From Squalus acanthias (taxonomy: Eukaryota), in contig CM059443.1 in the NCBI GenBank assembly GCA_030390025.1, forward strand, positions 4,650,001-4,714,000: 64,000 bases of DNA, given 5' to 3'. The notes beneath the pieces are model-generated. The model had not been told where the DNA came from and did not search any database. It worked only from the letters and a program-made list of their open reading frames with translations. This document shows, in pieces, positions 3,101 through 56,482 of the stretch (position 1 is its first letter; the number at the start of each line of letters is the position of its first letter). The translations under genes were made by a program, and so were the position numbers.

Positions 3101-4634
3101 CTGCAATAGGAACCAGAGAAGATGTGTTTGTATAAAGTTATAGAAAAGTTTAGCATTTCAGAGTTTAATAGAAGCAGATTTTAAAGATTGCAGCTTCCTA
3201 TAGTGGACCCCAGAAGTTCACTGAGTGACGGGGCATTGCCCCTTTAAGATTATCCAGGCTTTGTCAAAACAGAAAAAGCTACAATTTGTTTCTGTAGAAT
3301 TATTGTTTAGGATCCTGCTGGTGACTCGCTGGATTAGAGCATCACTCACTCTGGGACTACACCTCCTGCTCCCAGGATCCATCCCCGGTCTGTGCCAAGT
3401 TAGCTGATCTAGGGCGAGGGCACCAGGGACGCTTCACTTGGCCTCAGTATCCCGGGTTAGGGAAAGAAGTGATCCAGGATCCCACTTCTGACCACAAACC
3501 AGTGACCTCTGCCTCTGCGATCATTGATTTGAAGTTGATAATCTACCCCAACAGGTGATGCGTTTTGGCACTGAGCCATTGAGGACTTGGGAGAGACACA
3601 CTGAGTATAAAGTGGCTCCATCCCCATGTAATGTACCCACACCCTGTCCTACCAGCTGCACATTCCTCCTCTACAATTCCCCCCTTCCCTCACCACCCAT
3701 CACTAATGCCCCTGCTGTGCCACCACTGCCGAGGAAGGATAAAAGATCTCAAACTCTCCACTGGCCCAGTGGGTGAGGGCACCAGGTGTGTGGTCCCGAG
3801 CTCTACAGACAGAGTGACAGGTTGGTCTGTGATGAGGCTCCAATTGGCACAGTGCCCCTGGGTTAGGAGAGGGGAACAAAAAGCTAACGTCCCCTTTCCT
3901 GGTTGATATCCAGTGACCCTTCTCCCGCCTCCCACTGCCCCCATTGGGAAGGTGCTCAGTTGTGGGTGTGAGGCCAGGACAGGACATGGATATTGACAGG
4001 TGAATGACCCGCCGACACTCAGTGTCCCGGCTAATTTATGAAGAATGGTCAATTGGGGCAAGGTGGTGGAGGGCTCACAACTCCCATGGACACAAGCCTG
4101 AGGGAATGGGAGGGACGATTCTCAATATCCAAGTGTACACGGTGGGAAATTGGAAGTTGCAAAATGTTTTTAAAAAAGGAAAATCTACAAGTGCTGATGT
4201 GGGGCTGCCGGCGATGTACACAAAGCAGCAACAGTAACCCACCAGCACAGGCTCAGTGTCGACATGGCAACCGGCAGAATTCACAGTGAGCCAGTGGTGT
4301 GGGGCCCGGTCCGGGTGTTAGTGGTCAATGCCAAAGATCAGCACAAACCAGAGAGCCTTTTCACCGCAGTGCCGCTCCTACCAGAGTCCGGCTACAGACA
4401 GATTCTGGTCCCCACACACCATTGGGGGGAATTGTACCCAGAACCAGAGCTCCAGCCTCAGAATGTGCAGCAACCAGAATCACTCAGCATCAGGACTCAA
4501 AGGAGCAGTGCGGAGGGGAATGGATGGCGATGAAGGGAAGAGGAAAGGAAATAGAAGATGGGAGCAGAGCTTTATTGGACAGGAGTCAGAAGGAGAGTTC
4601 CAGCATGAACTGGGAGGATTGAGGAGGAGAGTTT

Positions 4635-5021
4635 CTGAGGGTGGGGAGGTGGATGGGGTACAGTGTCTGAGGGTGGGGAGGTGGATGGGGTACAGTGTCT
4701 GAGGGCGGGGAGTTGGACGGGGTACAGTGTCTGAGGGTGGGGAGGTGGATGGGGTACAGTGTCTGAGGGTGGGGAGGTGGACGGGGTACAGTGTCTGAGG
4801 GTGGGGAGTTGGATGGGGTACAGTGTCTGAGGGTGGGGAGGTGGACGGGGTACAGTGTCTGAAGGTGGGGAGGTGGACGGGGTACAGTGTCTGAAGGTGG
4901 GGAGGTGGACGGGGTACAGTGTCTGAGGGTGGGGAGGTGGACGGGGTACAGTGTCTGAAGGTGGGGAGGTGGATGGGGTACAGTGTCTGAAGGTGGGGAG
5001 GTGGATGGGGTACAGTGTCTG
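4635..5021 (+). repeat. 32-bp G-rich minisatellite, about 12 copies, in the J-C intron of cluster 1
   Basis: Unit GGGGTACAGTGTCTGA(G/A)GGTGGGGAGGTGGA(T/C); TACAGTG recurs every 32 nt from 4659 to 5011. Confidence 0.95.
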
Positions 5022-5329
5022 AATTGGCTCAAAAGGCGGTGTCAAGGACCTCAACTGGGGCAGGGAGGGAAGTTGTTCATGGAAAGGGAGTGACTGGTGG
5101 GGAATTGATGATCTGTCACTAAATGGTTTAAGGATCAGGATGAAATTGGTGCAGACAAATGTGGGTCAGAGCACAACGTGGCACGATTGAAATCAGAATG
5201 TGGGGGAATGCTGGGGTGGGCAAGAATGACAGAATAATGAACTCTCAACAACATGGTATTAAACAGATCCAGAACCACCGATCCTGAGCAGTCTAATCTA
5301 TGGAATCTGGAACTATGTCTGGACAACAC

Positions 5330-24690: not shown

Positions 24691-24919
24691 TGACATAAGA
24701 AAACTACTAGGCACTTGGTCTAAGCGTTAAACAAAGCTTTAATCAACTGTTTTACAACATGGAGATCTAGTTGTGTCCTTAATTAGTTCCTGTTAAGGAA
24801 TGTCCTGAGCAAGCTGGGCCCATGCCCGAGTATTTATACTCTCCCTGGACAGCGCAACCAGCAGACCGTCCAGTATTACTTCATAAGTCATTTCCACATG
24901 AATGACAAGATTCATGTCA
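24691..24919 (-). mobile_element. Solo LTR related to the tandem Gypsy element
   Basis: Termini TGACAT...ATGTCA with near-TSD GTTAC/GTCAC. Shares gctttaatcaact, catggag.tctagtt and gggcccatgcc.gagtatttatact with LTR 31339-31553. Confidence 0.75.
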
Positions 24920-31168: not shown

Positions 31169-31591
31169 TTAACGAGTTGATACAGCACCTATACTTATAT
31201 TTATATCTATATCCATCTTGTAGGTTGTTAAGTATAGAAGGAGTGTTTTACTGACAGTGGTACTAAGACCCAGATTTAAGTCTCTAAAGACAACAAGTCC
31301 CTGATCAGGCCTTGTAGAACTTAAATCAGAACTCCCTCTGACGTAATAAAGACTCACTACGCACTTGAACATAAAGCAAGGCTTTAATCAACTTGTAACA
31401 AAACATGGAGGTCTAGTTAGCAGTCACTAGCTTCCTGTTTCCAGATTGTCTCTCCCCAAGGTGGGCCCATGCCTGAGTATTTATACGCCCTGGACGGCAC
31501 CCCAGCTGGCCGCCCAGTAGTACTTCCTGAGTTGTTACTTGCGATTTATGACATTCTTCCTCCCTAAAAGGTTTGGAAGTCCAGTCTTCCT

Positions 31592-34500
31592 TTAACGGAC
31601 TAGGCGGACCAGAAATAGCCGTAGACGTTTAGCTCTCTGCTTGTGAGTGGAAGGCACGTCTCCCCGGACCGTGTCCTGGTCCCTGGGTCGCTTGGCCCGT
31701 ACCGGTAAGTCAGTAGAGTCCGCGTCATCTTGATCATCCTGTGGAGGACTGGGAATATCATGACTCCGGGTGCGGGTCCCCACAGGTGCTGAGCTGGCCT
31801 CATCCCGGGTCGTGGCTGGAGATTGTCCGGCGTCCTGGTTTCGGGTGGCCATCCTACGGGGAGCGTCCAGCTCCCTGAGTTGATCCGGTAGCGTTGCCGG
31901 CAGATCCCCCGATGTCCCAGGCGGGGCGTCATTTTCATAGGGGTGCGGAGTGTTGATATCATTGTCGGGGGATCCTTCATCATTCGGCCCCGTGTGACCG
32001 GTTGGGCAGGGAGCCAGATCTCGGAGCGAGACGGTGGTCTCCCGGCCATCAGGTTACCGTACGTGCGCATACGTGGGGTTTACCTCCGTTAACTCCACCT
32101 CGTCAACGAGAGGGTCGTTTTTGGCAGACCGGACGAACCTCCGGAGTAGCACCGGGCCTGGAGCCACCAACCATGACGGTAGAGACGTCCCATGTGTAGA
32201 GCGACGCCGGAATTTGAAGAATCGCTCATGAGGCGTGACATTAGTAGATGTGGAGAGAAGAGACCTGATAGAGTGTAACGCGTCGGGGAGCACCGTTTCC
32301 CACTGCTGGTCCGGCAGGTTGCGTGACCTTAGTGCCAGACGGACAGCGTTCCAGATGATGGCATTGTATCGTTCAACCTGTCAGTTACCGATTGGGTGAT
32401 ATGGTGTCGTCTTACTTGAGCCGATTCCCCGTTGGGAGAGATAACTTTTAAGTTCACTCGACATAAAGGAGGGACCCCGATCAGTGTGGATAAAATTGGC
32501 CGTCCCGCAAAGGGAAAAGACCTGATCGAGGCATTTAATTACCGTAGAGGTAAGCATATTAGGGCAGGGGAAGGCGAAGGGAAAGCGTGAATACTCGTCC
32601 ACCATCGTAAGTAGGTAGGTGTTCCTTGTCGACGAAGGCAATGGCCCTTTAAAGTCTATGCTGAGCCTCTGCATAGGCTGCATTGCATGTATGAGTAAGC
32701 CATCTGATGGGCGAAAGAATTGTGGTTTCAATTCTGCACAAATCCTACAGGAGGAGCATGTTTTCTTTACGTCCTCGGTTGAAAATGGTAGATTTTTGGA
32801 GCGCACAAAGTGCAACATGCGGGTCACACCAGGATGGCATAAGTCCATATGCAAATCCGCCAGAGTCGACGTTGACATTGAGGAGCAAAATGCCCGTGTG
32901 AAGGTATCTGGGGCCACGTTCTGTTTGCCGGGTCGGTAACAGATAGTATATCCAAAGGCAGCCAGCTCCATCCTCCAGAGTTGAATTTTATTATTTTTGA
33001 TTTTCGTGCGCCTCCGGTTATCCAACATGAAGGCCACAGAGCACTGGTCAGTTATAAGCGTAAAATGACGCCGAGCAAGAAAATGACCCCATTGGCGTAC
33101 AGCCTCGATGATGGCCGTAGCCTCCTTCTCGACGGGGGGGTAATGGAGCTCGCTACCCTGCAAGGTTCTGGATAGGAATGCCACGGGTCGGCCACCTTGA
33201 TTCAAGGTAGCGGAGATCGCCACCTCCGATGCATCGCATTCGACCACAAAAGGAAGATTTTCGTCAATGGAGCGAAGCGTGGCTTTCTCCAGCTGTCGTT
33301 TGAGGAGGTTGAAGGCAGAAATAGCCATAGCTTCCAATGGAAAAGACTTCGCATGGAGCAGGGGCTGTATTTTATCGGAGAAGTGTGGTATCCATTTTGC
33401 GTAATAAGCAAACATGCCAAGTGCCCGACGAAGAGAGCCGAGGTTCGTCGGGGGAGGGAGCTCCTGAAGTGGACGAAGTCGCTCTGGGTCCGGTTTAATA
33501 ACACCGTTGCCCACCCAGTAGCCAAGAATGTTCACCGATGGCACCGACTTCACCGATTTGGATTCGTTTAACGTTAAGTGGCGACGGCGGAGTACGTCAA
33601 AAAATCTCTGAAGATTGGCGTCATGCTCCTTTTGATCATGGCCGGCAATAGTGATATTGTCTAAATACGGAAAGGTATCCGTCAAGTTCTCTTGCCGGAC
33701 TAGGCCATCCATGGCCCGTTGGAAGACGGCCACCCCATTGGTGACCCCGAATGGAAGGCGGCGAAACTGGAAAAGCCGACCATTGGCCTCAAAGGCCGTA
33801 TACTTCTTGTCGGAGTCTTGCAGTGGCACCTGATGGTACGCGCTTTTTAAATCGAAGGTCGAGAATACCTTGTATTTGGCAAGGTTGTTGACCATGTCAT
33901 CTATGCATGGCAGCGGGTAGGCATCCAGATCGGTATATTGATTAATAGTCTGCGAATAATCGATACACAGACGTTTTTTATGTTGTTTTAAGGGATTCCT
34001 CACGATGACGACCTGAGCCCGCCAGGGAGATGAACATGGCTCGATAATACCGTCGACTAAAAGGCGAGAGATTTCCGCCTCAATAAACGCTCGATCGTCT
34101 TGGCTAAAGCGCCGCGATTTGGTGGCTATGGGTTTACAGCGGGGGGGAAGATTGGCAAACAGGGAGGGTTCACCGAGTAAGGCCGCCGAGAGTGCACAAA
34201 ACGGCACCTTAGAAATGGTAAGCTCCGGCCTTGACCCTCCAAACTCAAAAGTGATCTTCTTGTGCTGCTTCTGGAAGTCCTGTCCCAGAAGCACATCGCT
34301 ACATAAGTTTTCGAGTACTCCGAGCCGGGTGGAGAGATACGTGCGGCCGTTGAGGATGAGGTTGACAAGACAGAAGCCAGAAGAATTGGTGGTCAGAGTC
34401 GTCAGAGCCATTGCAATCTCCCTGTCCGAGGGATAAGTGTGCAGTTTTAACCTGTTGACAGCCCGCTTACTAATGAAGCTGTCAGAGCTGCAGGAGTCGA

Positions 34501-34717
34501 TTAGCGCGCTTAGAGTGTGCCCATTTACTGAAACCTCAATATAATCATACACATGAGGAGACACGTAGTTGATAAGCATTCGTAACTTATTAGGGACATC
34601 CGCCCCACATTCTTCAAGAAAGTTGCTAAAGGTACGAAACCAATGCTTCCATACCTTCGCTGCCGCAGGTGCATTCGGGTCCAGGTCGAGACGAGCGGGT
34701 CTAAGGAGTTTTTCCAT
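31592..34717 (-). pseudogene. Gypsy gag(truncated)-PR-RT-RH-IN polyprotein, copy A; in-frame stops at 32381 and 32054
   Basis: PR IDSCSSDSFI; RT CIDYS / DLKSAYHQ / PFG / YLDN; RH CDASE, EKEA, TDQ; IN H-H-C-C, IDFKGPLP, HTDRG, then GN*QVERYN and HVR*PDGRETTVS in the same frame. Confidence 0.92.
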
Positions 34718-35070
34718 GATGGATCAGTTTCTTGCCCTAGTTCCCTTCTGTGGTTCGAGTTGCAGCTGGTTGTTCCAAATCACCCAAAGCGTGGAGACGA
34801 TACCAAGTTGATTAAATTGATGTAATAAAGACTCACTACGCACTTGAACATAAAGCAAGGCTTTAATCAACTTGTAACAAAACATGGAGGTCTAGTTAGC
34901 AGTCACTAGCTTCCTGTTTCCAGATTGTCTCTCCCCAAGGTGGGCCCATGCCTGAGTATTTATACTCCCTGGACGGCGCCCCAGCTGGCCGCCCAGTAGT
35001 ACTTCCTGAGTTGTTACTTGCGATTTATGACATTCTTCCTCCCTAAAAGGTTTGGAAGTCCAGTCTTCCT

Positions 35071-38000
35071 TTAACGGACTAGGCGGACCAGAAATAGCCG
35101 TAGACGTTTAGCTCTCTGCTTGTGACTGGAAGGCACGTCTCCCCGGACCGTGTCCTGGTCCCTGGGTCGCTTGGCCCGTACCGGTAAGTCAGTAGAGTCC
35201 GCGTCATCTTGATCATCCTGTGGAGGACTGGGAATATCATGACTCCGGGTGCGGGTCCCCACAGGTGCTGAGCTGGCCTCATCCCGGGTCGTGGCTGGAG
35301 ATTGTCCGGCGTCCTGGTTTCGGGTGGCCATCCTACGGGGAGCGTCCAGCTCCCTGAGTTGATCCGGTAGCGTTGCCGGCAGATCCCCCGATGTCCCAGG
35401 CGGGGCGTTATTTTCATAGGGGTGCGGAGTGTTGATATCATTGTCGGGGGATCCTTCATCATTCGGGCCCGTGTGACCGGTTGGGCAGGGAGCCAGATCT
35501 CGGAGCGAGACGGTGGTCTCCCGGCCATCAGGTTACCGTACGTGCGCATACGTGGGGTTTACCTCCGTTAACTCCACCTCGTCAACGAGAGGGTCGTTTT
35601 TGGCAGACCGGACGAACCTCCGGAGTAGCACCGGGCCTGGAGCCACCAACCATGACGGTAGAGACGTCCCATGTGTAGAGCGACGCCGGAATTTGAAGAA
35701 TCGCTCATGAGGCGTGACATTAGTAGATGTGGAGAGAAGAGACCTGATAGAGTGTAACGCGTCGGGGAGCACCGTTTCCCACTGCTGGTCCGGCAGGTTG
35801 CGTGACCTTAATGCCAGACGGACAGCGTTCCAGATGATGGCATTGTATCGTTCAACCTGTCAGTTACCGATTGGGTGATATGGTGTCGTCTTACTTGAGG
35901 CGATTCCCCGTTGGGAGAGATAACTTTTAAGTTCACTCGACATAAAGGAGGGACCCCGATCAGTGTGGATAAAATTGGCCGTCCCGCAAAGGGAAAAGAC
36001 CTGATCGAGGCATTTAATTACCGTAGAGGTAAGCATATTAGGGCAGGGGAAGGCGAAGGGAAAGCGTGAATACTCGTCCACCATCGTAAGTAGGTAGGTG
36101 TTCCTTGTCGACGAAGGCAATGGCCCTTTAAAGTCTATGCTGAGCCTCTGCATAGGCTGCATTGCATGTATGAGTAAGCCATCTGATGGGCGAAAGAATT
36201 GTGGTTTCAATTCTGCACAAATCCTACAGGAGGAGCATGTTTTCTTTACGTCCTCGGTTGAAAATGGTAGATTTTTGGAGCGCACAAAGTGCAACATGCG
36301 GGTCACACCAGGATGGCATAAGTCCATATGCAAATCCGCCAGAGTCGACGTTGACATTGAGGAGCAAAATGCCCGTGTGAAGGTATCTGGGGCCACGTTC
36401 TGTTTGCCGGGTCGGTAACAGATAGTATATCCAAAGGCAGCCAGCTCCATCCTCCAGAGTTGAATTTTATTATTTTTGATTTTCGTGCGCCTCCGGTTAT
36501 CCAACATGAAGGCCACAGAGCACTGGTCAGTTATAAGCGTAAAATGACGCCGAGCAAGAAAATGACCCCATTGGCGTACAGCCTCGATGATGGCCGTAGC
36601 CTCCTTCTCGACGGGGGGGTAATGGAGCTCGCTACCCTGCAAGGTTCTGGATAGGAATGCCACGGGTCGGCCACCTTGATTCAAGGTAGCGGAGATCGCC
36701 ACCTCCGATGCATCGCATTCGACCACAAAAGGAAGATTTTCGTCAATGGAGCGAAGCGTGGCTTTCTCCAGCTGTCGTTTGAGGAGGTTGAAGGCAGAAA
36801 TAGCCGTAGCTTCCAATGGAAAAGACTTCGCATGGAGCAGGGGCTGTATTTTATCGGAGAAGTGTGGTATCCATTTTGCGTAATAAGCAAACATGCCAAG
36901 TGCCCGACGAAGAGAGCCGAGGTTCGTCGGGGGAGGGAGCTCCTGAAGTGGACGAAGTCGCTCTGGGTCCGGTTTAATAACACCGTTGCCCACCCAGTAG
37001 CCAAGAATGTTCACCGATGGCACCGACTTCACCGATTTGGATTCGTTTAATGTTAAGTGGCGACGGCGGAGTACGTCAAAAAATCTCTGAAGATTGGCGT
37101 CATGCTCCTTTTGATCATGGCCGGCAATAGTGATATTGTCTAAATACGGAAAGGTATCCGTCAAGTTCTCTTGCCGGACTAGGCCATCCATGGCCCGTTG
37201 GAAGACGGCCACCCCATTGGTGACCCCGAATGGAAGGCGGCGAAACTGGAAAAGCCGACCATTGGCCTCAAAGGCCGTATACTTCTTGTCGGAGTCTTGC
37301 AGTGGCACCTGATGGTACGCGCTTTTTAAATCGAAGGTCGAGAATACCTTGTATTTGGCAAGGTTGTTGACCATGTCATCTATGCATGGCAGCGGGTAGG
37401 CATCCAGATTGGTATATTGATTAATAGTCTGCGAATAATCGATACACAGACGTTTTTTATGTTGTTTTAAGGGATTCCTCACGATGACGACCTGAGCCCG
37501 CCAGGGAGATGAACATGGCTCGATAATACCGTCGACTAAAAGGCGAGAGATTTCCGCCTCAATAAACGCTCGATCGTCTTGGCTAAAGCGCCGCGATTTG
37601 GTGGCTATGGGTTTACAGCGGGGGGGAAGATTGGCAAACAGGGAGGGTTCACCGAGTAAGGCCGCCGAGAGTGCACAAAACGGCACCTTAGAAATGGTAA
37701 GCTCCGGCCTTGACCCTCCAAACTCAAAAGTGATCTTCTTGTGCTGCTTCTGGAAGTCCTGTCCCAGAAGCACATCGCTACATAAGTTTTCGAGTACTCC
37801 GAGCCGGGTGGAGAGATACGTGCGGCCGTTGAGGATGAGGTTGACAAGACAGAAGCCAGAAGAATTGGTGGTCAGAGTCGTCAGAGCCATTGCAATCTCC
37901 CTGTCCGAGGGATAAGTGTGCAGTTTTAACCTATTGACAGCCCGCTTACTAATGAAGCTGTCAGAGCTGCAGGAGTCGATTAGCGCGCTTAGAGTGTGCC

Positions 38001-38196
38001 CATTTACTGAAACCTCAATATAATCATACACATGAGGAGACACGTAGTTGATAAGCATTCGTAACTTATTAGGGACATCCGCCCCACATTCTTCAAGAAA
38101 GTTGCTAAAGGTACGAAACCAATGCTTCCATACCTTCGCTGCCGCAGGTGCATTCGGGTCCAGGTCGAGACGAGCGGGTCTAAGGAGTTTTTCCAT
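35071..38196 (-). pseudogene. Gypsy polyprotein, copy B; same two stops (35860, 35533)
   Basis: Near-identical to copy A; 778-aa ORFs differ at 3 residues. Confidence 0.92.
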
Positions 38197-38589
38197 GATG
38201 GATCAGTTTCTTGCCCTAGTTCCCTTCTGTGGTTCGAGTTGCAGCTGGTTGTTCCAAATCACCCAAAGCGTGGAGACGATACCAAGTTGATTAAATTGAT
38301 GTAATAAAGACTCACTACGCACTTGAACATAAAGCAAGGCTTTAATCAACTTGTAACAAAACATGGAGGTCTAGTTAGCAGTCACTAGCTTCCTGTTTCC
38401 AGATTGTCTCTCCCCAAGGTGGGCCCATGCCTGAGTATTTATACTCCCTGGACGGCGCCCCAGCTGGCCGCCCAGTTGTACTTCCTGAGTTGTTACTTGC
38501 GATTTATGACACCCTCAATATACCATTGAGGTCTAGAAATTCCTTATAAAGTTCAAATTAAACCCTAACCGAGGTTAGGTCCTGACGAA

Positions 38590-40218
38590 ATGGAAAGCCC
38601 TGTAGGAATTGGCCAAGTCTTTTTATTAGGGAATTCAAATGATTGCTTTATTAGGGGAAATAATCCTATCCCTGTACCTCCACAAGACAAAGTAATAATT
38701 TTTGATCGATCGTCAATCATGATTAAAAAAGGGACATCCCAACAATCCTCAGCTGGGATGGGGATAGTAGTAGGGACTTTTCGAGATTCCTATTCTTTTA
38801 ATCCAGAAGAATTACTGTCCATACCCCTTGGCCATAAGACAGCGCAATATGCTGAAGCCGCAGCATTACGGTATGCTTTAGAAAAGGCAGACCCTATTAA
38901 ACCCACACTAATCTGTACAGATAGTGACTACTGTAAAAGAGGATATAACCAAGATCTAGTTTTCTGGGAACAAACAAATTTTATCAATCATAAGGGTAAA
39001 CCCATAAAACATAAGTCATTGTGGGAAGACATTCTCCGTTCGAGAATGGAGAAACAGAATTGTCAGGTGATTCATGTAAACGGGCATACCACTGGGACAG
39101 TACACTCAAAAGGAAACAGTCTTGGACACGAACAAGCAAAACGCTCAGTCTTCATGACACCCCCTCGAGAGGGGCCTGCCAATATTAGTGTAATCACTAG
39201 GGCAGAACGGGTAGCTAATCAGGATGAGGAACTGATTCAGCTATTAGACCCGACAAAAGAGAATCCACCAGGATATCCACCAAAGTACTTTTACTCGGAA
39301 ACCCCTACGGGTATTGTGCTAGTTAAGTTGCCCAAGGGAAACCGAGAAGTAGTCCCGAGACACAAACGAGAACAGCTTGTAAAAGAAGCTCACGAGAGAA
39401 TAGGTCAAGCACATTGTGGTGCCAGAACAATATTCTGCAAATTGACACCCTTATATTGGTGGCCAGGCATGCTTAAGGCCTATAAAACATATGTGGCAAA
39501 TTGTGAGCCATGCTATTTAACCAATAAGTCATCACTAATTAAGCCACCACCATTGGCTCCTGTGAAAGCTGATGAGCCAATGGGAAAATTCTTTATTGAC
39601 TTTATTGGACCACTTCCCCCGTCTTTGGGATACAGACATGTTCTCGTTTGTGTAGATGGATGCACTTCCTTCTGCTGGCTGGTCCACACAAAAATTGTTT
39701 CAGAAAACGCACTCGCCAATGCTATTACTGACATAATTACTGTAGCTGGTGCGCCCAAAATCTTACACTCCGTTAAAGGCGGAGCCTTTGTCTCCAAGGT
39801 CTTCAAAGACTACTGCGAACAAAGGGGGATTGGGTTAGAGCACAGCACGCCACATCATCTGCAATCAGCGGGGCTGTTGGAACGTAAAAACCAGGAAGTT
39901 AAAAAGCTATTGGTCAAACTGTTGAGAATCAGGGGAAATAAGTGGACCACCGTCATTCCGGAGGTGCAGCTATCACTTAATAATGTGCCCACATCTGCAT
40001 CAGGGACAGTGTCCCCTAAAACTCCATATTATCTGATGTATGGGGTTGAGATGAATACACCGCTTACCCATAGTTCTTTTATTGCCTCTACACTTTCTGA
40101 GTCCGTGACCCGACAGCGACAGTTAGATTTAAAAAAAGAAGTAACAGAGGAGATTCATCAAATTGATCAGAGGATAAGGGAGGCAAATAGGCAGAAAAAA
40201 TTGACAAACAAAGCATAG
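38590..40218 (+). pseudogene. pol: Foamy-like Pol remnant: RNase H plus integrase (542-aa ORF; C-terminal domain continues out of frame to about 40400)
   Basis: SAGMGIV...SIPLGHKTAQYAE...TDS...KPIKH; integrase N-terminal extension GYPPKYFY; HHCC; KFFIDFIGPLPPSLGY; ERKN; then LRPKWKKP...INERTV...RTVSINNLK. These parallel prototype foamy virus SAGMGIV/SIPLGNHTAQMAE/YPKQY/FFIDYIGPLPPSQGY/LRPRWHKP/RTVSIDNLK. Confidence 0.88.
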
Positions 40219-49120: not shown

Positions 49121-52100
49121 CAGAGTTACCCTTGTCCTCACCTTTCACCTCACCAGCCTCCACATTCAACGGATCATCCTCCGCCATTTCCGCCACCTCC
49201 AGCGCGATCCCACTACCAAACGCATCTTCCCCTCACCTCCCCTTTCAGCATTCCGTAGGGACCGCTCCCTCCGCGACACCCTAGTCCACTCCTCTATCAC
49301 CCCCAACACCCCTTCCCCTTCGCCCGGCACCTTCCCGTGCAAGCACAGGAGATGCAACACATGCCCTTATACCTCCCCCCTTCTCACTGTCTAGGGCCCC
49401 AAACACCCCTTCCAGGTGAAACAGCGATTTACTTGTACTTCTTGCAATTTAGTATACTGTATTCACTGCTCACGATGTGGTCTCCTCTACATTGGGGAGA
49501 CCAAACACAGATTGGGTGACCGCTTTGCGGAACACCTCCGTTCAGTCCGTAAGGGGGACCCCGAGCTTCCAGTCGCCTGTCACTTTAATTCTCCGCTCCA
49601 CTCCCACTCAGACTTCACCGTCCCCGGCCTCTTGCATTGTTCCACTGAAGCTCAGCGTAAGCTCGAGGAACAGCACCTCATCTTTCAATTAGGCACTTTA
49701 CAGTCCTCTGGACTCAACATAGAGTTCAACAATTTCAGATCATAACCTCAGCCCCTATCATATATATATATTTTATCCACACTCTTTGTCTGTCTTATTT
49801 TTCTCTCTCCCACATGGCAGCTGTCTTCATTCTGCCAGCGCAATTTACACTTCATCTAGAGCCATCCTTTGTTTCTTAACCTGTCCCATTACCATCTCCT
49901 TTTGCCTTGAATATCTCTTAATATCTCTTAACCTCTCCTGCCTCCCATCCTATCACAGACCTTCCCTTTTGTTCTTTCATCCCCTCCCCCCTTTCTCAGC
50001 CTCTACACTTGCTTAAAAATCTGTTCCATTTCCTGCTTTTTTCCAGTTCTGACGAAAGGTCATTGACCTGAAACGTTAACTCTGTTTCTCTCTTCACAGA
50101 TGTTGCCTGACCTGCTGAGTATCTCCAGCATTTTCTGTTTTTATTTCAGATTTCCAGCATCTGCAGTATTTTCTTTTTGTATTAGTGTTTAATTCACTGC
50201 CACCTCTCTTCCAGGAATGCCCACCTTGAAGAAGTTCTGCCCTTCTCTTCGACAGGAGTTCCGTTTGTCTCTTTTACCTTGTTCATCTTCATTGTTTTCT
50301 GTCTCCCTTCTTGTGTTTGATCAGGTATCTACCAAAACTCGCTTTCACAGCCACGTATCTTTCCTCAGCAACTGTCTCCGGCTCCAACTTACTCCACGTG
50401 GATTCCAACTGAAATTGCACCCTTCGTGTTTTGGATCCACCCAGGACTACAGATATCTCCAAGATATTCAGCGTTCCTCGAACCACTGCTCTCGCCGTAT
50501 CCTGAGATCCATGCTGAATGCCATGCGCCGCCACATGAACACTCTCGACCTCTCTCTTCAGCAGCACCGACTCACTCTATTTCAAAGCTGTCCTGGTCCG
50601 CAGTTCCATTTCATCCTTCGCCTCATCCGGCGCTTTAACAAAAAACTTGTTTTCTTCCTTTCAAGTGTCAAGGATCGAAGGCTTTAACAACCCTTGAACA
50701 CCAACGACCCTCCGGAACCTTCTTCCCCTTCACTTTCCTCTGACCCCATCCCTTCTCCCAATCTCACCCCCTGCCGTGTTTTCACTATCCCCTCTGACCT
50801 TCCCCTCTCTGACCCCGAACGATCAGTCCTTAGCAAAGGCCTGAGCTTCATCCCCTTACGCCCCCACCTCAATGAATTTCGAGCTCGGCACGATGCTGAG
50901 CTGTTTTTCCGCCGCCTTCGTCTCCGTGCCCACTTCTTTGACCAGGAGTCTTCCCCCCACACGGCTGACCCTTTCTCCCGCTTTCAGAATTCTCGTTCCA
51001 CCTGGACCCCTCCCTCTGGCCTCTTACCCTCTCTAGATCTTTTCATTGCAAACTGCCGGCGTGACATCGGCCGTCTCTATTTCTCTGCTCCCCTCACTCA
51101 CTCCAACCTACCTCCCTCTGAACTTGCAGCACTCCATTCTCTCAGATCCAACCCCGACATTGTCATTAAACCTGCTGACAAGGGTGGTGCTGTTGTTGTT
51201 TGGCGAACCGACCTCTACCTAGCGGAAGCTGAACGCCAACTCTCCGACACCTCCTCCTACTTCCGCCTGGACCATGACCCCCACCACCGAACATAAAGCC
51301 ACCGTTTCCAAGACTGTCACTGACCTCATCTCCTCTGGCGATCTTCCCCCCACGGCCGCCAACCTCATAGTTCCCCAACCCCACACAGCCCTCTTCTACC
51401 TCCTTCCCAAGATCCACAAACAGGACTGCCCTGGTAGACCCATCGTTTCAGCTTGTTCTTGCCCCACGGAACTTATCTCTTCCTGTCTCGACTCTATTTT
51501 TTCTCCCCTTGTCCAGTCTCTTCCCACCTACATCCGCGGCTCTTCCGACGCCCTCCGCCACTTTAACAGTTCAGTTCCTGGTCCTTTTCACTATGGACGT
51601 ACAATCCCTCTACACCTCCATCCCCCACCAGGATGGCCTGAGGGCGCTCCGCTTCTTCCTTGAACAGAGGCCCAACCAGTCCCCATCCACCACCACTCTC
51701 CTCCGCCTGGCTGAACAACTTCTCCTTTGACTCCGCTCACTTCCTCCATGGGTCCTAGCTATGCCTGCCTTTTCGTGGGATATGTGGAACACTCTTTGTT
51801 CCAGTCCTACTCAGGTCCCCTCCCTCACCTCTTTTTCCGGTACATTGATGACTGTGTCGGTGCCGTTCCCTGCTCTTGCCCTGAACTAGATAATTTCATT
51901 CACTTTGCTTCCAATTTCCACCCTTCCCTCACCTACACATGGTCCATCTCCGACTTTTCCCTTCCCTTCCTCGACTTCTCCGTCTCCATCTCTGGGGATA
52001 GGTTATTGACAAACATTCACTACAAGCCCACTGACTCCCACAGCTACCTGGACTACACTTCCTCCCACTCCGCCTCCTGTAAGGACTCTATTCCATTCTC

Positions 52101-55100
52101 CCAGTTTCTCCGTCTCCGCCGCATCTGCTCTGACGATGCCACCTTCCATACCAGTGCTTCTGACATGTCTTCCTTTTTCCTGAACCAAGGATTCCCCTCT
52201 ACAGTGGTTGACACGGCCCTTGACCGTGTCCATTCTATCTCCCGCACTTCTGCTCTCACTCCTGCCCCTCCCTCCTGGAACCACGACAGAGTTCCCCTTG
52301 TCCTCACCTTTCACCTCACCAGCCTCCACATTCAACGGATCATCCTCCGCCATTTCCACCACCACCAGCGTGATCCCACCACCAAACGCATCTTTCCCTC
52401 ACCTCCCCTTTCAGCATTCCGTAGGGACCGCTCCCTCCACGACACCCTAGTCCACTCCTCTATCACCCCCAAAACCCCTTCCCCTTCGCCCGGCACCTTC
52501 CCGTGCAAGCGCAGGAGATGCAACACATGCCCTTATACCTCCCTCTTCTCACTGTCCAGGGCCCCAAACACCCCTTCCAGGTGAAACAGCGATTTACTTG
52601 TACTTCTTGCAATTTAGTATACTGTATTCGCTGCTCACGATGTGGTCTCCTCTACATTGGGGAGACCAAACGCAGATTGGGTGACCGCTCAGTCCGTAAG
52701 GGGGACCCCGAGCTTCCGGTCGCCTGTCACTTTAATTCACTGCTCCACTCACACTCAGACCTCACCGTCCTCGGCCTCTTGCATTGTTCCACGGAAGCTC
52801 AGCATAAGCTAGAGGAACAGCACCTCATCTTTCGATTAGGCACTTTACAGCCTTCCGGACTCAACATCGAGTTCAACAATTTCAGATCATAACCTCAGCC
52901 CCTATCATATATATATATTTTATCCACACTCTTTGTCTGTCTTTTTTTTTTCTTCTCCCTCACATGGCAGCTGTCTTTCATTCTGCCAGCGCAATTCACA
53001 CTTCATCTCGAGCCATCCTTTGTTTCTTAACCGGTCCCATTACCATCTCCTTTTGCCTTGAATATCTCTTAATATCTCTTAACCTCTTCCGCCTCCCATC
53101 CTATCACAGACCTTCCCTTTTGTTCTTTCATCTTCTCTCCCCTTTCCCAGCCTCTACACTTGCTTAAAAATCTGTTCCATTTCCTGCTTTTTTCCAGTTC
53201 TGACGAAAGGTCATCGACCTGAAACGTTAACTCTGTTTCTCTCTTCACAGATGCTGCCTGACCTGCTGAGTATCTCCAGCATTTTCTGTTTTTGTTTCAG
53301 ATTTCCAGCATCTGCAGTATTTTCTTTTTGTATTAGTGTTTAATTCACTGCCACCTCTCTTCCAGGAATGCCCACCTTGAAGAAGTTCTGCTCTTCTCTC
53401 CGACGGGAGTTCCGTTTGTCTCTTTTACCTTGTTCATCTTCATTGCTTTCTGTCTCCCTTCTTGTGTTTGATCAGGTATCTACCAAAACTCGCTTTCACA
53501 GCCACGTATCTTTCCTCAGCAACTGTCTCCGGCTCTGACTTACTCCACGTGGATTCCAACTGAAATTGCACCCTTCGTGTTTTGGATCCACCCAGGACTA
53601 CAGATATCTCCAAGATATTCAGTGTTCCTCGAACCACTGCTCTCGCCGTATCTTGAGATCCATGCTCAACGCCATGCGCTGCCACATGAACACTCTCAAC
53701 CTCTCTCTTCAGCAGCACCGACTCACTCTATCTCAAAGCTGTCCTGGTCCGCAGTTCCATTTCATCCTTCGCCTCATCCGGCGCTTTAACAAAAAACTTG
53801 TTTTCTTCCTTTCAAGTGTCAAGGATCGAATGCTTCAACAACCCTTGAACACCAACGACCCTCCGGAACCTTCTTCCCCTTCACTTTCCTCTGACCCCAT
53901 CCCTTCTCCCAATCTCACCCCCTGCCATGTTTTCACTATCCCCACTGACCTTCCCCTCTCTGACCCCGAACGATCTGTCTTTAGCAAAGGCCTGAGCTTC
54001 ATCCCCTTACGCCCCCACCTCAATGAATTTCGAGCTCGGCACGATGCTGAGCTGTTTTTCCGCCGCCTTCGTCTCCGTGCCCACTTCTTTGGCCAGGAGT
54101 CTTGCCCCCGCACGGCTGACCCTTTCTCCCACTTTCAGAATACTCGTTCTACTTGGACCCCTCCCTCTAGCCTCTTACCCTCTCTAGATCTTTTCATTGC
54201 AAACTGCCGGCGTGACATCGGCTGTCTCCATTTCTCTGCTCCCCTCACTCACTCCAACCTACCTCCCTCTGAACTTGCAGCACTCCATTCTCTCAGATCC
54301 AACCCCGACATTGTCATTAAACCTGCTGACAAGGGTGGTGCTGTTGTTGTTTGGCGAACCAACCTCTACCTAGCAGAAGCTGAACGCCAACTCTCCGACA
54401 CCTCCTCCTACTTCCGCCTGGACCATGACCCCCACCACCGAACATAAAGCCACCGTTTCCAAGACTGTCACTGACCTCATCTCCTCTGGCGATCTTCCCC
54501 CCACGGCCGCCAATCTCATAGTTCCCCAACCCCACACAGCCCTCTTCTACCTCCTTCCCAAGATCCACAAACAGGACTGCCCTGGTAGACCCATCGTTTC
54601 AACCTGTTCTTGCCCCACGGAACTTATCTCTTCCTGTCTCGACTCTATTTTTTCTCCCCTTGTCCAGTCTCTTCCCACCTATATCCGCGGCTCTTCCGAC
54701 GCCCTCCGCCACTTTAACAGTTTCCAGTTTCCTGGCCCCAACCGCCTCCTTTTCACTATGAACGTACAATCCCTCTACACCTCCATCCCCCACCAGGATG
54801 GCCTGAGGGAGCGCCGCTTCTTCCTTGAACAGAGGCCCAACCAGTCCCCATCCACCACCACCCTCCTCCGCCTGGCTGAACTTGTTCTCACATTGAACAA
54901 CTTCTCCTTTGACTCCGCTCACTTCCTCCATGGGTCCTAGCTATGTCTGCCTTTTCGTGGGATATGTGGAACACTCTTTGTTCCAGTCCTACTCAGGTCC
55001 CCTCCCTCACCTCTTTTTCCGGTACATTGATGACTGTATCGGTGCCGTTCCCTGCTCTCGCCCTGAACTAGGTAATTTCATTCACATTGCTTCCAAATTC

Positions 55101-56482
55101 CACCCTTCCCTCACCTTCACATGGTCCATCTCCGACTCTTCCCTTCCCTTCCTCGACTTCTCCGTCTCCATCTCTGGGGATAGGTTATTGACAAACATTC
55201 ACTACAAGCCCACTGACTCCCACAGCTACCTGGACTACACTTCCTCCCACCCCGCCTCCTGTAAGGACTCTATTCCATTCTCCCAGTTTCTCCGTCTCCG
55301 CCGCATCTGCTCTGACGATGCCACCTTCCATACCAGTGCTTCTGACATGTCTTCCTTTTTCCTCAACCGAGGATTCCCCACTACAGTGGTTGACACGGCC
55401 CTTGACCGTGTCCATTCTATCTCCCGCACTTCTGCTCTCACCCCTGCCCCTCCCTCCCGGAACCACGACAGAGTTCCCCTTGTCCTCACCTTTCACCCCA
55501 CCAGCCTCCACATTCAACGGATCATCCTCCGCCATTTCCGCCACCACCAGCGTGATCCCACCAACAAACGCATCTTCCCCTCACCTCCCCTTTCAGCATT
55601 CCGTAGGGACCGCTCCCTCCGCGACACCCTAGTCCACTCCTCTATCACCCCCAACACCCCTTCCCCTTCGCCCGGCACCTTCCCGTGCAAGCGCAGGAGA
55701 TGCAACACATGCCCTTATACCTCCCCTCTTCTCACTGTCCAGGGCCCCAAACACCCCTTCCAGGTGAAACAGCGATTTACTTGTACTTCTTGCAATTTAG
55801 TATACTGTATTCGCTGCTCACGATATGGTCTCCTCTACATTGGGGAGACCAAACGCAGATTGGGTGACCGCTCAGTCCGTAAGGGGGACCCCGAGCTTCC
55901 GGTCGCCTGTCACTTTAATTCACCGCTCCACTCACACTCAGACCTCACCGTCCTCGGCCTCTTGCATTGTTCCACGGAAGCTCAGCGTAAGCTCGAGGAA
56001 CAGCACCTCATCTTTCGATTAGGCACTTTACAGTCCTCTGGACTCAACATCGAGTTCAACAATTTCAGATCATAACCTCAACCCCTATCACATATATATA
56101 TATTTTTTATCCACACTCTTTGTCTGTGTCTTTTTTTCTCTTCTCTCCCACATGGCAGCCGTCTTTCATTCTGCCAGCGCAATTTACACTTCATCTAGAG
56201 CCATCCTTTGTTTCTTAACCTGTCCCATTACCATCTCCTTTTGCCTTGAATATCTCTTAATGTCTCTTAACCTCTTCCGCCTCCCATCCTATCACAGACC
56301 TTCCCTTTTGTTCTTTCATCTTCTCCCCCCTTTCCCAGCCTCTACACTTGCTTAAAAATCTGTTCCATTTCCTGCTTTTTTCCTGTTCTGACGAAAGGTC
56401 ATCGACCTGAAACGTTAACTCTGTTTCTCTCTTCACAGGTGTTGCCTGACCTGCTGAGTTTCTCCAGCATTTTCTGTTTTTA
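49121..56482 (+). mobile_element. Penelope-like element array (partial copy plus two near-full copies), probably Neptune-like, decayed
   Basis: KPADKGGAVVV, YLLPKIHK..PGRPIVS, RYIDD, Cys-rich linker CKRRRCNTC, GIY-YIG LVYCIRCSRCGLLYIGET...GLN. EN ends repeat at 49745, 52892 and 56075 (about 3.15-kb period). Confidence 0.92.
50043..50082 (+). ncRNA. Minimal type-I hammerhead ribozyme motif in pLTR (also about 53194-53233, 56382-56421 and 24117-24156)
   Basis: AGTT-CTGACGA-a-AGGTC(att)GACCT-GAAA-CG-TT|AACT: core, stem II, palindromic AACGTT stem III and a 4-bp stem I. Confidence 0.7.

Follow-up and report, generated by a model that had tools for sequence, protein, structure and literature searches.

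An LTR-complementary primer site in a Gypsy element of Squalus acanthias and its relatives points to self-priming outside the chromoviruses

To our knowledge, self-priming of reverse transcription has been shown experimentally only in fission-yeast elements, and it is usually tied to chromoviruses. In Tf1, the RNA's initial 11 bases pair with the primer-binding site and RNase H cuts between bases 11 and 12 (PMC7175516). Published accounts treat self-priming as proven in Tf1 and infer it for Tf2, for Tj1 and for Tf1/sushi elements (PMC7175516, PMC4600332, PMC5341516), and Tf1 and Tf2 of Schizosaccharomyces pombe, Tj1 of S. japonicus and Tf1/sushi elements share a primer site that is complementary to the LTR in place of a tRNA site. 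Self-primers have also been predicted in plants for the Tcn1 clade (Gypsy) and for the TAR lineage with Houba and Osr-1 (Copia), using as criterion an LTR complement of at least 10 nt beginning 0-5 nt past the LTR (PMC6317226). With these predictions self-priming outside chromoviruses had already been proposed, although the non-chromovirus Gypsy lineages of plants are given there as tRNA-primed (PMC6317226). The hairpin site of fungal GalEa and the hairpins of bivalve TRIMs likewise lie beside the 5′ LTR and lack a tRNA site, but there each of the two arms is internal, and a complement of the LTR was not found (PMC5445492, PMC6934838). For Saci2-like elements, tRNA sites are described (PMC12471100). 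Among the titles and abstract openings listed in searches of openly accessible papers, the top 12-20 in the larger searches, none described self-priming in an animal non-chromovirus Gypsy clade.

We describe a Gypsy element of Squalus acanthias in which the primer site is not of a tRNA type and a complement of the element’s own LTR stands in its place. The element has the 11-nt core and the Ty3/Gypsy domain order of Tf1, but differs from Tf1/sushi in lacking a chromodomain and SH3_Tf2-1 and in having its own long reverse transcriptase (RT) branch. Across its lineage the pairing covers 11-18 nt rather than a fixed 11 nt, the LTRs are short with a loop of 21-70 nt, the arm often ends in a polyA hexamer, and RNA start and RNase H cut are predicted. 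Unlike the plant elements for which the same criterion has been used, it belongs to an animal, and unlike TAR it is not a Copia element. One arm of its pairing lies in the LTR, in contrast to GalEa and the TRIMs.

The window, by which we mean the whole 64,000-nt stretch of S. acanthias DNA analysed, contains the element on the minus strand at 31339-38511 as a head-to-tail tandem (LTR-internal-LTR-internal-LTR) with a 5-bp target duplication at both flanks. The 5′ LTR (38297..38511) is 215 bp long and bounded by TG...CA, the middle LTR (34818..35032) is common to both units, and the 3′ LTR (31339..31553) is followed by the target duplication; the LTR end at 38297 was set by this third LTR and by the duplication on both flanks. 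First and middle LTR differ at one base, and the internal units at nine over 3263 nt. A polypurine tract (35033..35044) precedes the middle LTR. The gag-pol frames of unit 1 (35860..38196) and unit 2 (32381..34717), which encode protease, RT and RNase H, are defective in the same way, each having lost 813 nt of gag in frame and carrying an early stop in integrase. The TG...CA LTRs, the target duplication and the polypurine tract are those of Ty3/Gypsy elements, as is the order protease-RT-RNase H-integrase, and the RT is nearest to that of Ty3 among solved structures. Elsewhere in the 3.7-Gb genome there are many copies of the window family with frames of about 1,315 codons. The primer-binding site is present in 688 copies of this family, and a corresponding 12-nt site in 259 copies of a sister family of the same genome, which is about 77% identical to it over gag-protease. 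The RT catalytic motif of the window family (RT in 35860-38196) is YxDN and not YxDD despite hundreds of young, long-frame copies; no account of this motif in RT was found in the literature search.

Other repeats were observed in the window. Adjoining the tandem, an RNase H-integrase frame on the plus strand (38569-40218) appears retrovirus-like from its RT-less order and its sequence. Both flanks of 31339-38511 recur in the window, which makes it probable that another LTR element was the target of the Gypsy insertion. At 49121-56464, three units in tandem, each about 3.2 kb long and with RT-like and endonuclease-like pieces, look Penelope-like by eye, and a minisatellite of at least 13 units of 32 nt occupies 4527-5102.

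On the minus strand, a single spacer base A (38296) follows the 5′ LTR, and the next 13 nt (38295-38283) are the exact reverse complement of an arm within the LTR (38353-38341), with a loop of 45 nt between them. The second unit repeats the arrangement, with 34816-34804 complementary to 34874-34862 in the middle LTR. Both pairings had been reported in a first-pass annotation of this DNA and are confirmed here; calculated from LTR composition, a perfect 13-nt match has a chance of about 3e-5. Within the arm, which is the predicted self-primer, the 11-nt core spans 38351-38341 and a polyA-like hexamer (38346-38341) makes up the last six bases. The duplex is predicted in minimum-energy and centroid structures alike, and the stability of the whole local fold is not unusual (z -0.55 and -1.07). 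The annotation had further stated that a solo LTR at about 24738 retains the motif. It does so at 11 of 13 nt, but this solo LTR (24691..24919, minus strand) belongs to the sister family and not to that of the window; its arm is 12 nt long (24749-24738), and the sister family’s own full-length copies carry a matching 12-nt complement of their own LTR.

Pairing has been maintained through a two-sided change within this genome. Contigs assembled from related runs contain an LTR variant at 34869 that marks an older subfamily with a 4-nt insertion in U5. The site base is changed in all 31 copies of this subfamily found by pattern, and the partner change is present in the 5′ LTR of 22, with CpG-type decay in the other 9. 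Where the 5′ LTR had decayed, the 3′ LTR keeps the partner base in 6 of 7 readable copies, so the older subfamily already carried the change in site and arm alike when it inserted. An intermediate sublineage with a G-U pair was weighed and dropped, as the 3′ LTRs point to CpG decay after insertion.

Relatives were collected in order to follow site and arm over larger distances. A protein search returned 349 homologs, of which the 120 listed are 47-67% identical; the named sources among them are a soft coral, crustaceans, a tunicate and a sea cucumber, each represented by protein records. From a metagenome scan the best 80 of 271 loci were taken. Of these, 27 stretches had a gag start plus 200 nt upstream, and two more lay too close to a contig end. 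A genome search with a distant gag gave only the same family back, no relative was found in viral contigs, and a protein-atlas look-up of Gag yielded generic or unnamed clusters only. Among the listed homologs the RT motif is YxDN in 74 and YxDD in 36, with 10 not parsed.

Searched blind, 22 of the 27 stretches proved to contain a perfect inverted repeat of 11-18 nt, against a mean near 7 and a maximum of 12 in shuffled sequences. With the two local families added, pairing is perfect in 24 of 29 upstream regions, representing 18 families, and the arrangement thus extends across the lineage. Two of the five misses have no visible LTR, and the three others are decayed copies whose site, judged by eye, is still similar to the arm in the 3′ LTR or in the family. 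In 17 of the 18 families the site begins 1 nt past the CA of the LTR, and in one it begins 2 nt past it, over loops that vary from 21 to 70 nt among families. At seven of the first 11 positions, two or three Watson-Crick pair types occur among the 18 families, and the average match of a site is 13.6 nt to its own LTR and 5.5 nt to the LTRs of other families. The families were chosen for an 11-nt match, and a pairing rate calculated within them is therefore circular, whereas the variety of pairs and the fixed offset are not. A second two-sided change inside one family distinguishes L068 from L073/L077/L125, which are near-identical metagenome copies. The covariation that the annotation had proposed to look for is thus found both across families and within the genome.

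Two features around the pairing were observed by the way. In several relatives (L065-L068, L075/L076, L080, L090, L097, L136) a single mismatch at position 12-17 is often followed by renewed pairing, and positions 14-16 are paired in 11 of the 18 families; such renewed pairing may be a record of longer primers from upstream starts. From L064 to L136, the arm is nearly always followed by four RCCT-like bases, which often pair with an AGG further downstream and stack a hairpin on the duplex. A hairpin immediately after the arm, sought as a possible counterpart of the U5 stem-loop of Tf1, is predicted in many relatives but beats shuffled loops (at most 1/30) in only 4 of 17 families, and the window family is not among these.

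The annotation’s view that the element does not look like a chromovirus is borne out. A chromodomain and SH3_Tf2-1 are absent from a full-length sister copy and four homologs (Pfam, E 0.05), and both were detected in all three comparison elements, which come from viral contigs. In RT-RNase H trees, the lineage forms one side of a long, fully supported branch, and the three chromodomain-bearing elements group without it (95/94; Tf1 and sushi themselves are not in the tree). Supports were obtained under a simpler model with a long pararetrovirus row left out. The sister of the lineage is the TGG-type group described below, weakly supported at 70/82, and holding the lineage together with the chromoviruses was not rejected in an AU test (p 0.13). 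By domains and by nesting, the lineage thus appears not to be a chromovirus, while a position as sister to the chromoviruses is not rejected. Searches with DUF4939, chromodomain and SH3_Tf2-1 found no chromovirus in this genome, the SH3 hits being retrovirus-like. We presume that the lineage may correspond to the Cigr-1 clade or to one of the MolGy clades. Cigr-1 of Ciona intestinalis has short LTRs and a single frame of about 1,200 codons, a layout resembling that of most of the listed homologs, tunicate proteins included. The main text of the report on the mollusc clades Cigr-1, MolGy1 and MolGy2 does not contain ‘PBS’ or ‘primer’ (PMC6238403).

Genome copies show a hot spot of variation exactly where the complement ends. 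At the first unpaired position of the window family (38282, minus strand; G in the window and A, G or C in sister copies), 116 copies in otherwise exact context depart from the majority A, against 8 at the next base. These variants comprise 100 G, 16 C and no T. T is the base that would be templated by read-through into the LTR upstream of the arm, and it is found in none of the 116. The corresponding base of unit 2 is 34803. In the sister family the complement is one base shorter and the hot spot is shifted by one; the first 100 of 259 copies, read by hand, comprise 51 with G, 36 with A, 7 with a one-base insertion and 6 with a deletion, and in exact context T occurs once and C never. An alignment of 41 fetched sister-family copies contains 4 one-base indels at the hot spot where 0.13 are expected, and also two other sites with more indels.

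The hot-spot alleles recur on different sublineages, and the G allele is present in both sublineages of the window family, unlinked to their markers. Of all non-CpG sites the hot site needs the most changes on both trees, counts that favour it because it alone was excluded when the trees were built. The alleles are partly inherited, with 13 of the 16 C copies in one sublineage (10 changes versus 14.6 when shuffled). Counting against a footprint of priming, T stands at this position in 2 of 19 fetched copies of the older subfamily. A TGG-type family of this genome has no hot spot in 51 copies, so that a footprint reading is without a positive control. The hot spot agrees with a primer whose end lies exactly at 38353, in the manner of Tf1, and we infer, as a likely reading, that it marks this end. 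We further infer that the variable base is an untemplated addition made when synthesis of the plus strand runs off its template at the primer's 5′ end. Tf1 reportedly keeps its primer through reverse transcription. Its RT adds untemplated bases (PMC3185545).

From these patterns we consider it highly probable that, like Tf1, the element uses a short piece of its own RNA to prime reverse transcription. Covariation, domain content and the RT tree together support self-priming outside the chromoviruses, a likeness to Tf1/sushi at which the annotation had hinted. A competing idea is that the primer is supplied by the host, as a tRNA, a tRNA half or another small RNA, and that the LTR match is incidental. 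Half-tRNA primers do exist in Copia lineages (PMC6317226), and our tRNA sample, from an Rfam search with 63 places, covers only 4 isotypes and 19 distinct sequences, does not represent the host tRNAs one by one and is too thin to count alone. Within that sample the best match to the site is 7 nt. As the annotation had noted, there is no recognisable tRNA site: no TGG lies within 5 nt of the LTR end, so a mature tRNA 3′ end cannot pair, and the TGG 12 nt downstream of the LTR end is not conserved, with most sister copies having TGA. No occurrence of the 11-nt core in the genome has a tRNA T-arm motif after it. The site also varies across 18 families, each time following its own LTR, and does so even between subfamilies in one host, and we accordingly give an outside primer next to no weight. 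The other Gypsy families of this genome, which we take to be Mag-like, provide a comparison: they too have short LTRs and a single gag-pol frame, but share only about 30% RT identity with the element, have a TGG site 1-5 nt past the LTR (9 of 9 copies) and have no hot spot, nor any self-complement apart from matches of 3-7 nt. L268-L269 and their relatives in the genome form a second very young Gypsy family with frames of 1,335 codons and a TGG-type site.

Alternatively, the duplex could serve solely to hide the polyA signal of the 5′ LTR, with something else nearby acting as primer. In 11 of 17 families the last bases of the arm are AATAAA or ATTAAA, and the duplex, which is present in the predicted fold, can form at the 5′ LTR only. 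The hexamer at the arm end is non-canonical in the remaining 6, however, and two of these have a canonical one at another place in the loop, where it is unmasked; since pairing persists without a canonical polyA signal, masking is not its core job. A plain hairpin, moreover, would not explain why a hot spot lies at its edge or why the site keeps a constant 1-nt offset from the LTR end while loops vary from 21 to 70 nt, and no conserved alternative primer site was seen nearby. Masking as the main function, which the annotation had offered instead of or beside priming, thus receives very little weight from us, but the duplex may conceal the signal as a side effect or benefit. Within self-priming itself, and already counted in the probability given to it, the primer might be cut not from the 5′ leader but from the 3′ copy of R or from a partner RNA in the particle. 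With the arm upstream of the likely polyA site, the same letters occur at both RNA ends, and the DNA sequence cannot separate the copies. This route would require two cuts for a defined 5′ end, fold-back onto the site is local and favourable, and the literature examined contained no precedent, so that we allow it scarcely any probability.

Where the RNA begins is less straightforward. A TATA-like box, TATAAATA (38436..38443, minus strand), lies 92 nt before the 11-nt core, and the distance is 90-92 nt in both local families. On account of this box the annotation had cautioned that the transcript probably does not begin with the paired bases. The local TATA position would indeed place the start about 60 nt too early for the arm, and in both local families the pairing includes a C ahead of the first purine, which also counts against a start at the arm. 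C is an unusual start base for Pol II. The box is common to the sister family, but it was not found in 13 of 17 families; the four that have it are the two local ones, a relative with it at 114 nt and another at 28 nt, where the perfect match is 11 nt long and then ends in a true mismatch. The core starts with AG in 14 of 17 families, near the initiator consensus quoted in PMC3601003, and a start at the arm is therefore plausible for the lineage. Together with the hot spot at the edge of the complement, the scarcity of the box suggests that the caution is likely wrong or only half right. Alternative starts by which Tf2 gains or loses its self-primer (PMC5341516) are a possible model for two starts here. 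In assembled contigs from eight of 15 related runs, LTR depth fits DNA, and neither starts or ends nor joints or polyA tails were seen. Around the TATA box, a block of 32 nt (34936-34967, 38415-38446) is common to more abundant families and has a short inverted repeat as its core; a depth peak in the same contigs falls on it. Many arms follow a T-rich stretch and AG, and a splice-made primer was considered for this reason; it was rejected by eye for both local families, the match being contiguous in the DNA with no usable donor between TATA and arm.

In the self-priming mechanism that we propose from sequence comparison, the RNA that is copied into DNA would begin at about 38353, and its first 13 nt would fold back onto the primer-binding site. 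The element’s RNase H would cut past the last paired base (38341), and the new 3′ end would prime minus-strand DNA into U5. The remainder of R, from the cut to the polyA site, would be used for the first strand transfer. Plus-strand synthesis would then copy the primer through to its 5′ end and rewrite the site from the LTR in each cycle, which would explain the perfect match between site and arm, while an untemplated base added at the primer end would explain the hot spot. In the 3′ LTR, the letters of the arm are likely the polyA signal wherever a canonical hexamer is formed. Given self-priming, the 5′ end of this RNA is somewhat more probably the transcription start itself; that it arises by a second cut in a longer RNA is a rather unlikely variant. 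Only as a tentative and doubtful scenario do we suggest that a large animal Gypsy lineage evolved self-priming independently of the chromoviruses with its polyA stretch as primer, and that in the vertebrate families, with a TATA-driven start some 60 nt upstream, the primer is made by two cleavages or by a second start, which would act as a switch between protein-making and copy-competent RNA.

Self-priming itself was already known, and what is new here is the hot spot at the primer edge. It offers a way to infer the 5′ end of a primer from genome copies alone and could be applied to any LTR family without a tRNA site. The lineage is relevant to the question, posed in PMC3601003, of whether self-priming is an ancestral trait or a convergent one. 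Self-priming elements would also lack the site by which tRNA fragments silence LTR elements (PMC7472051).
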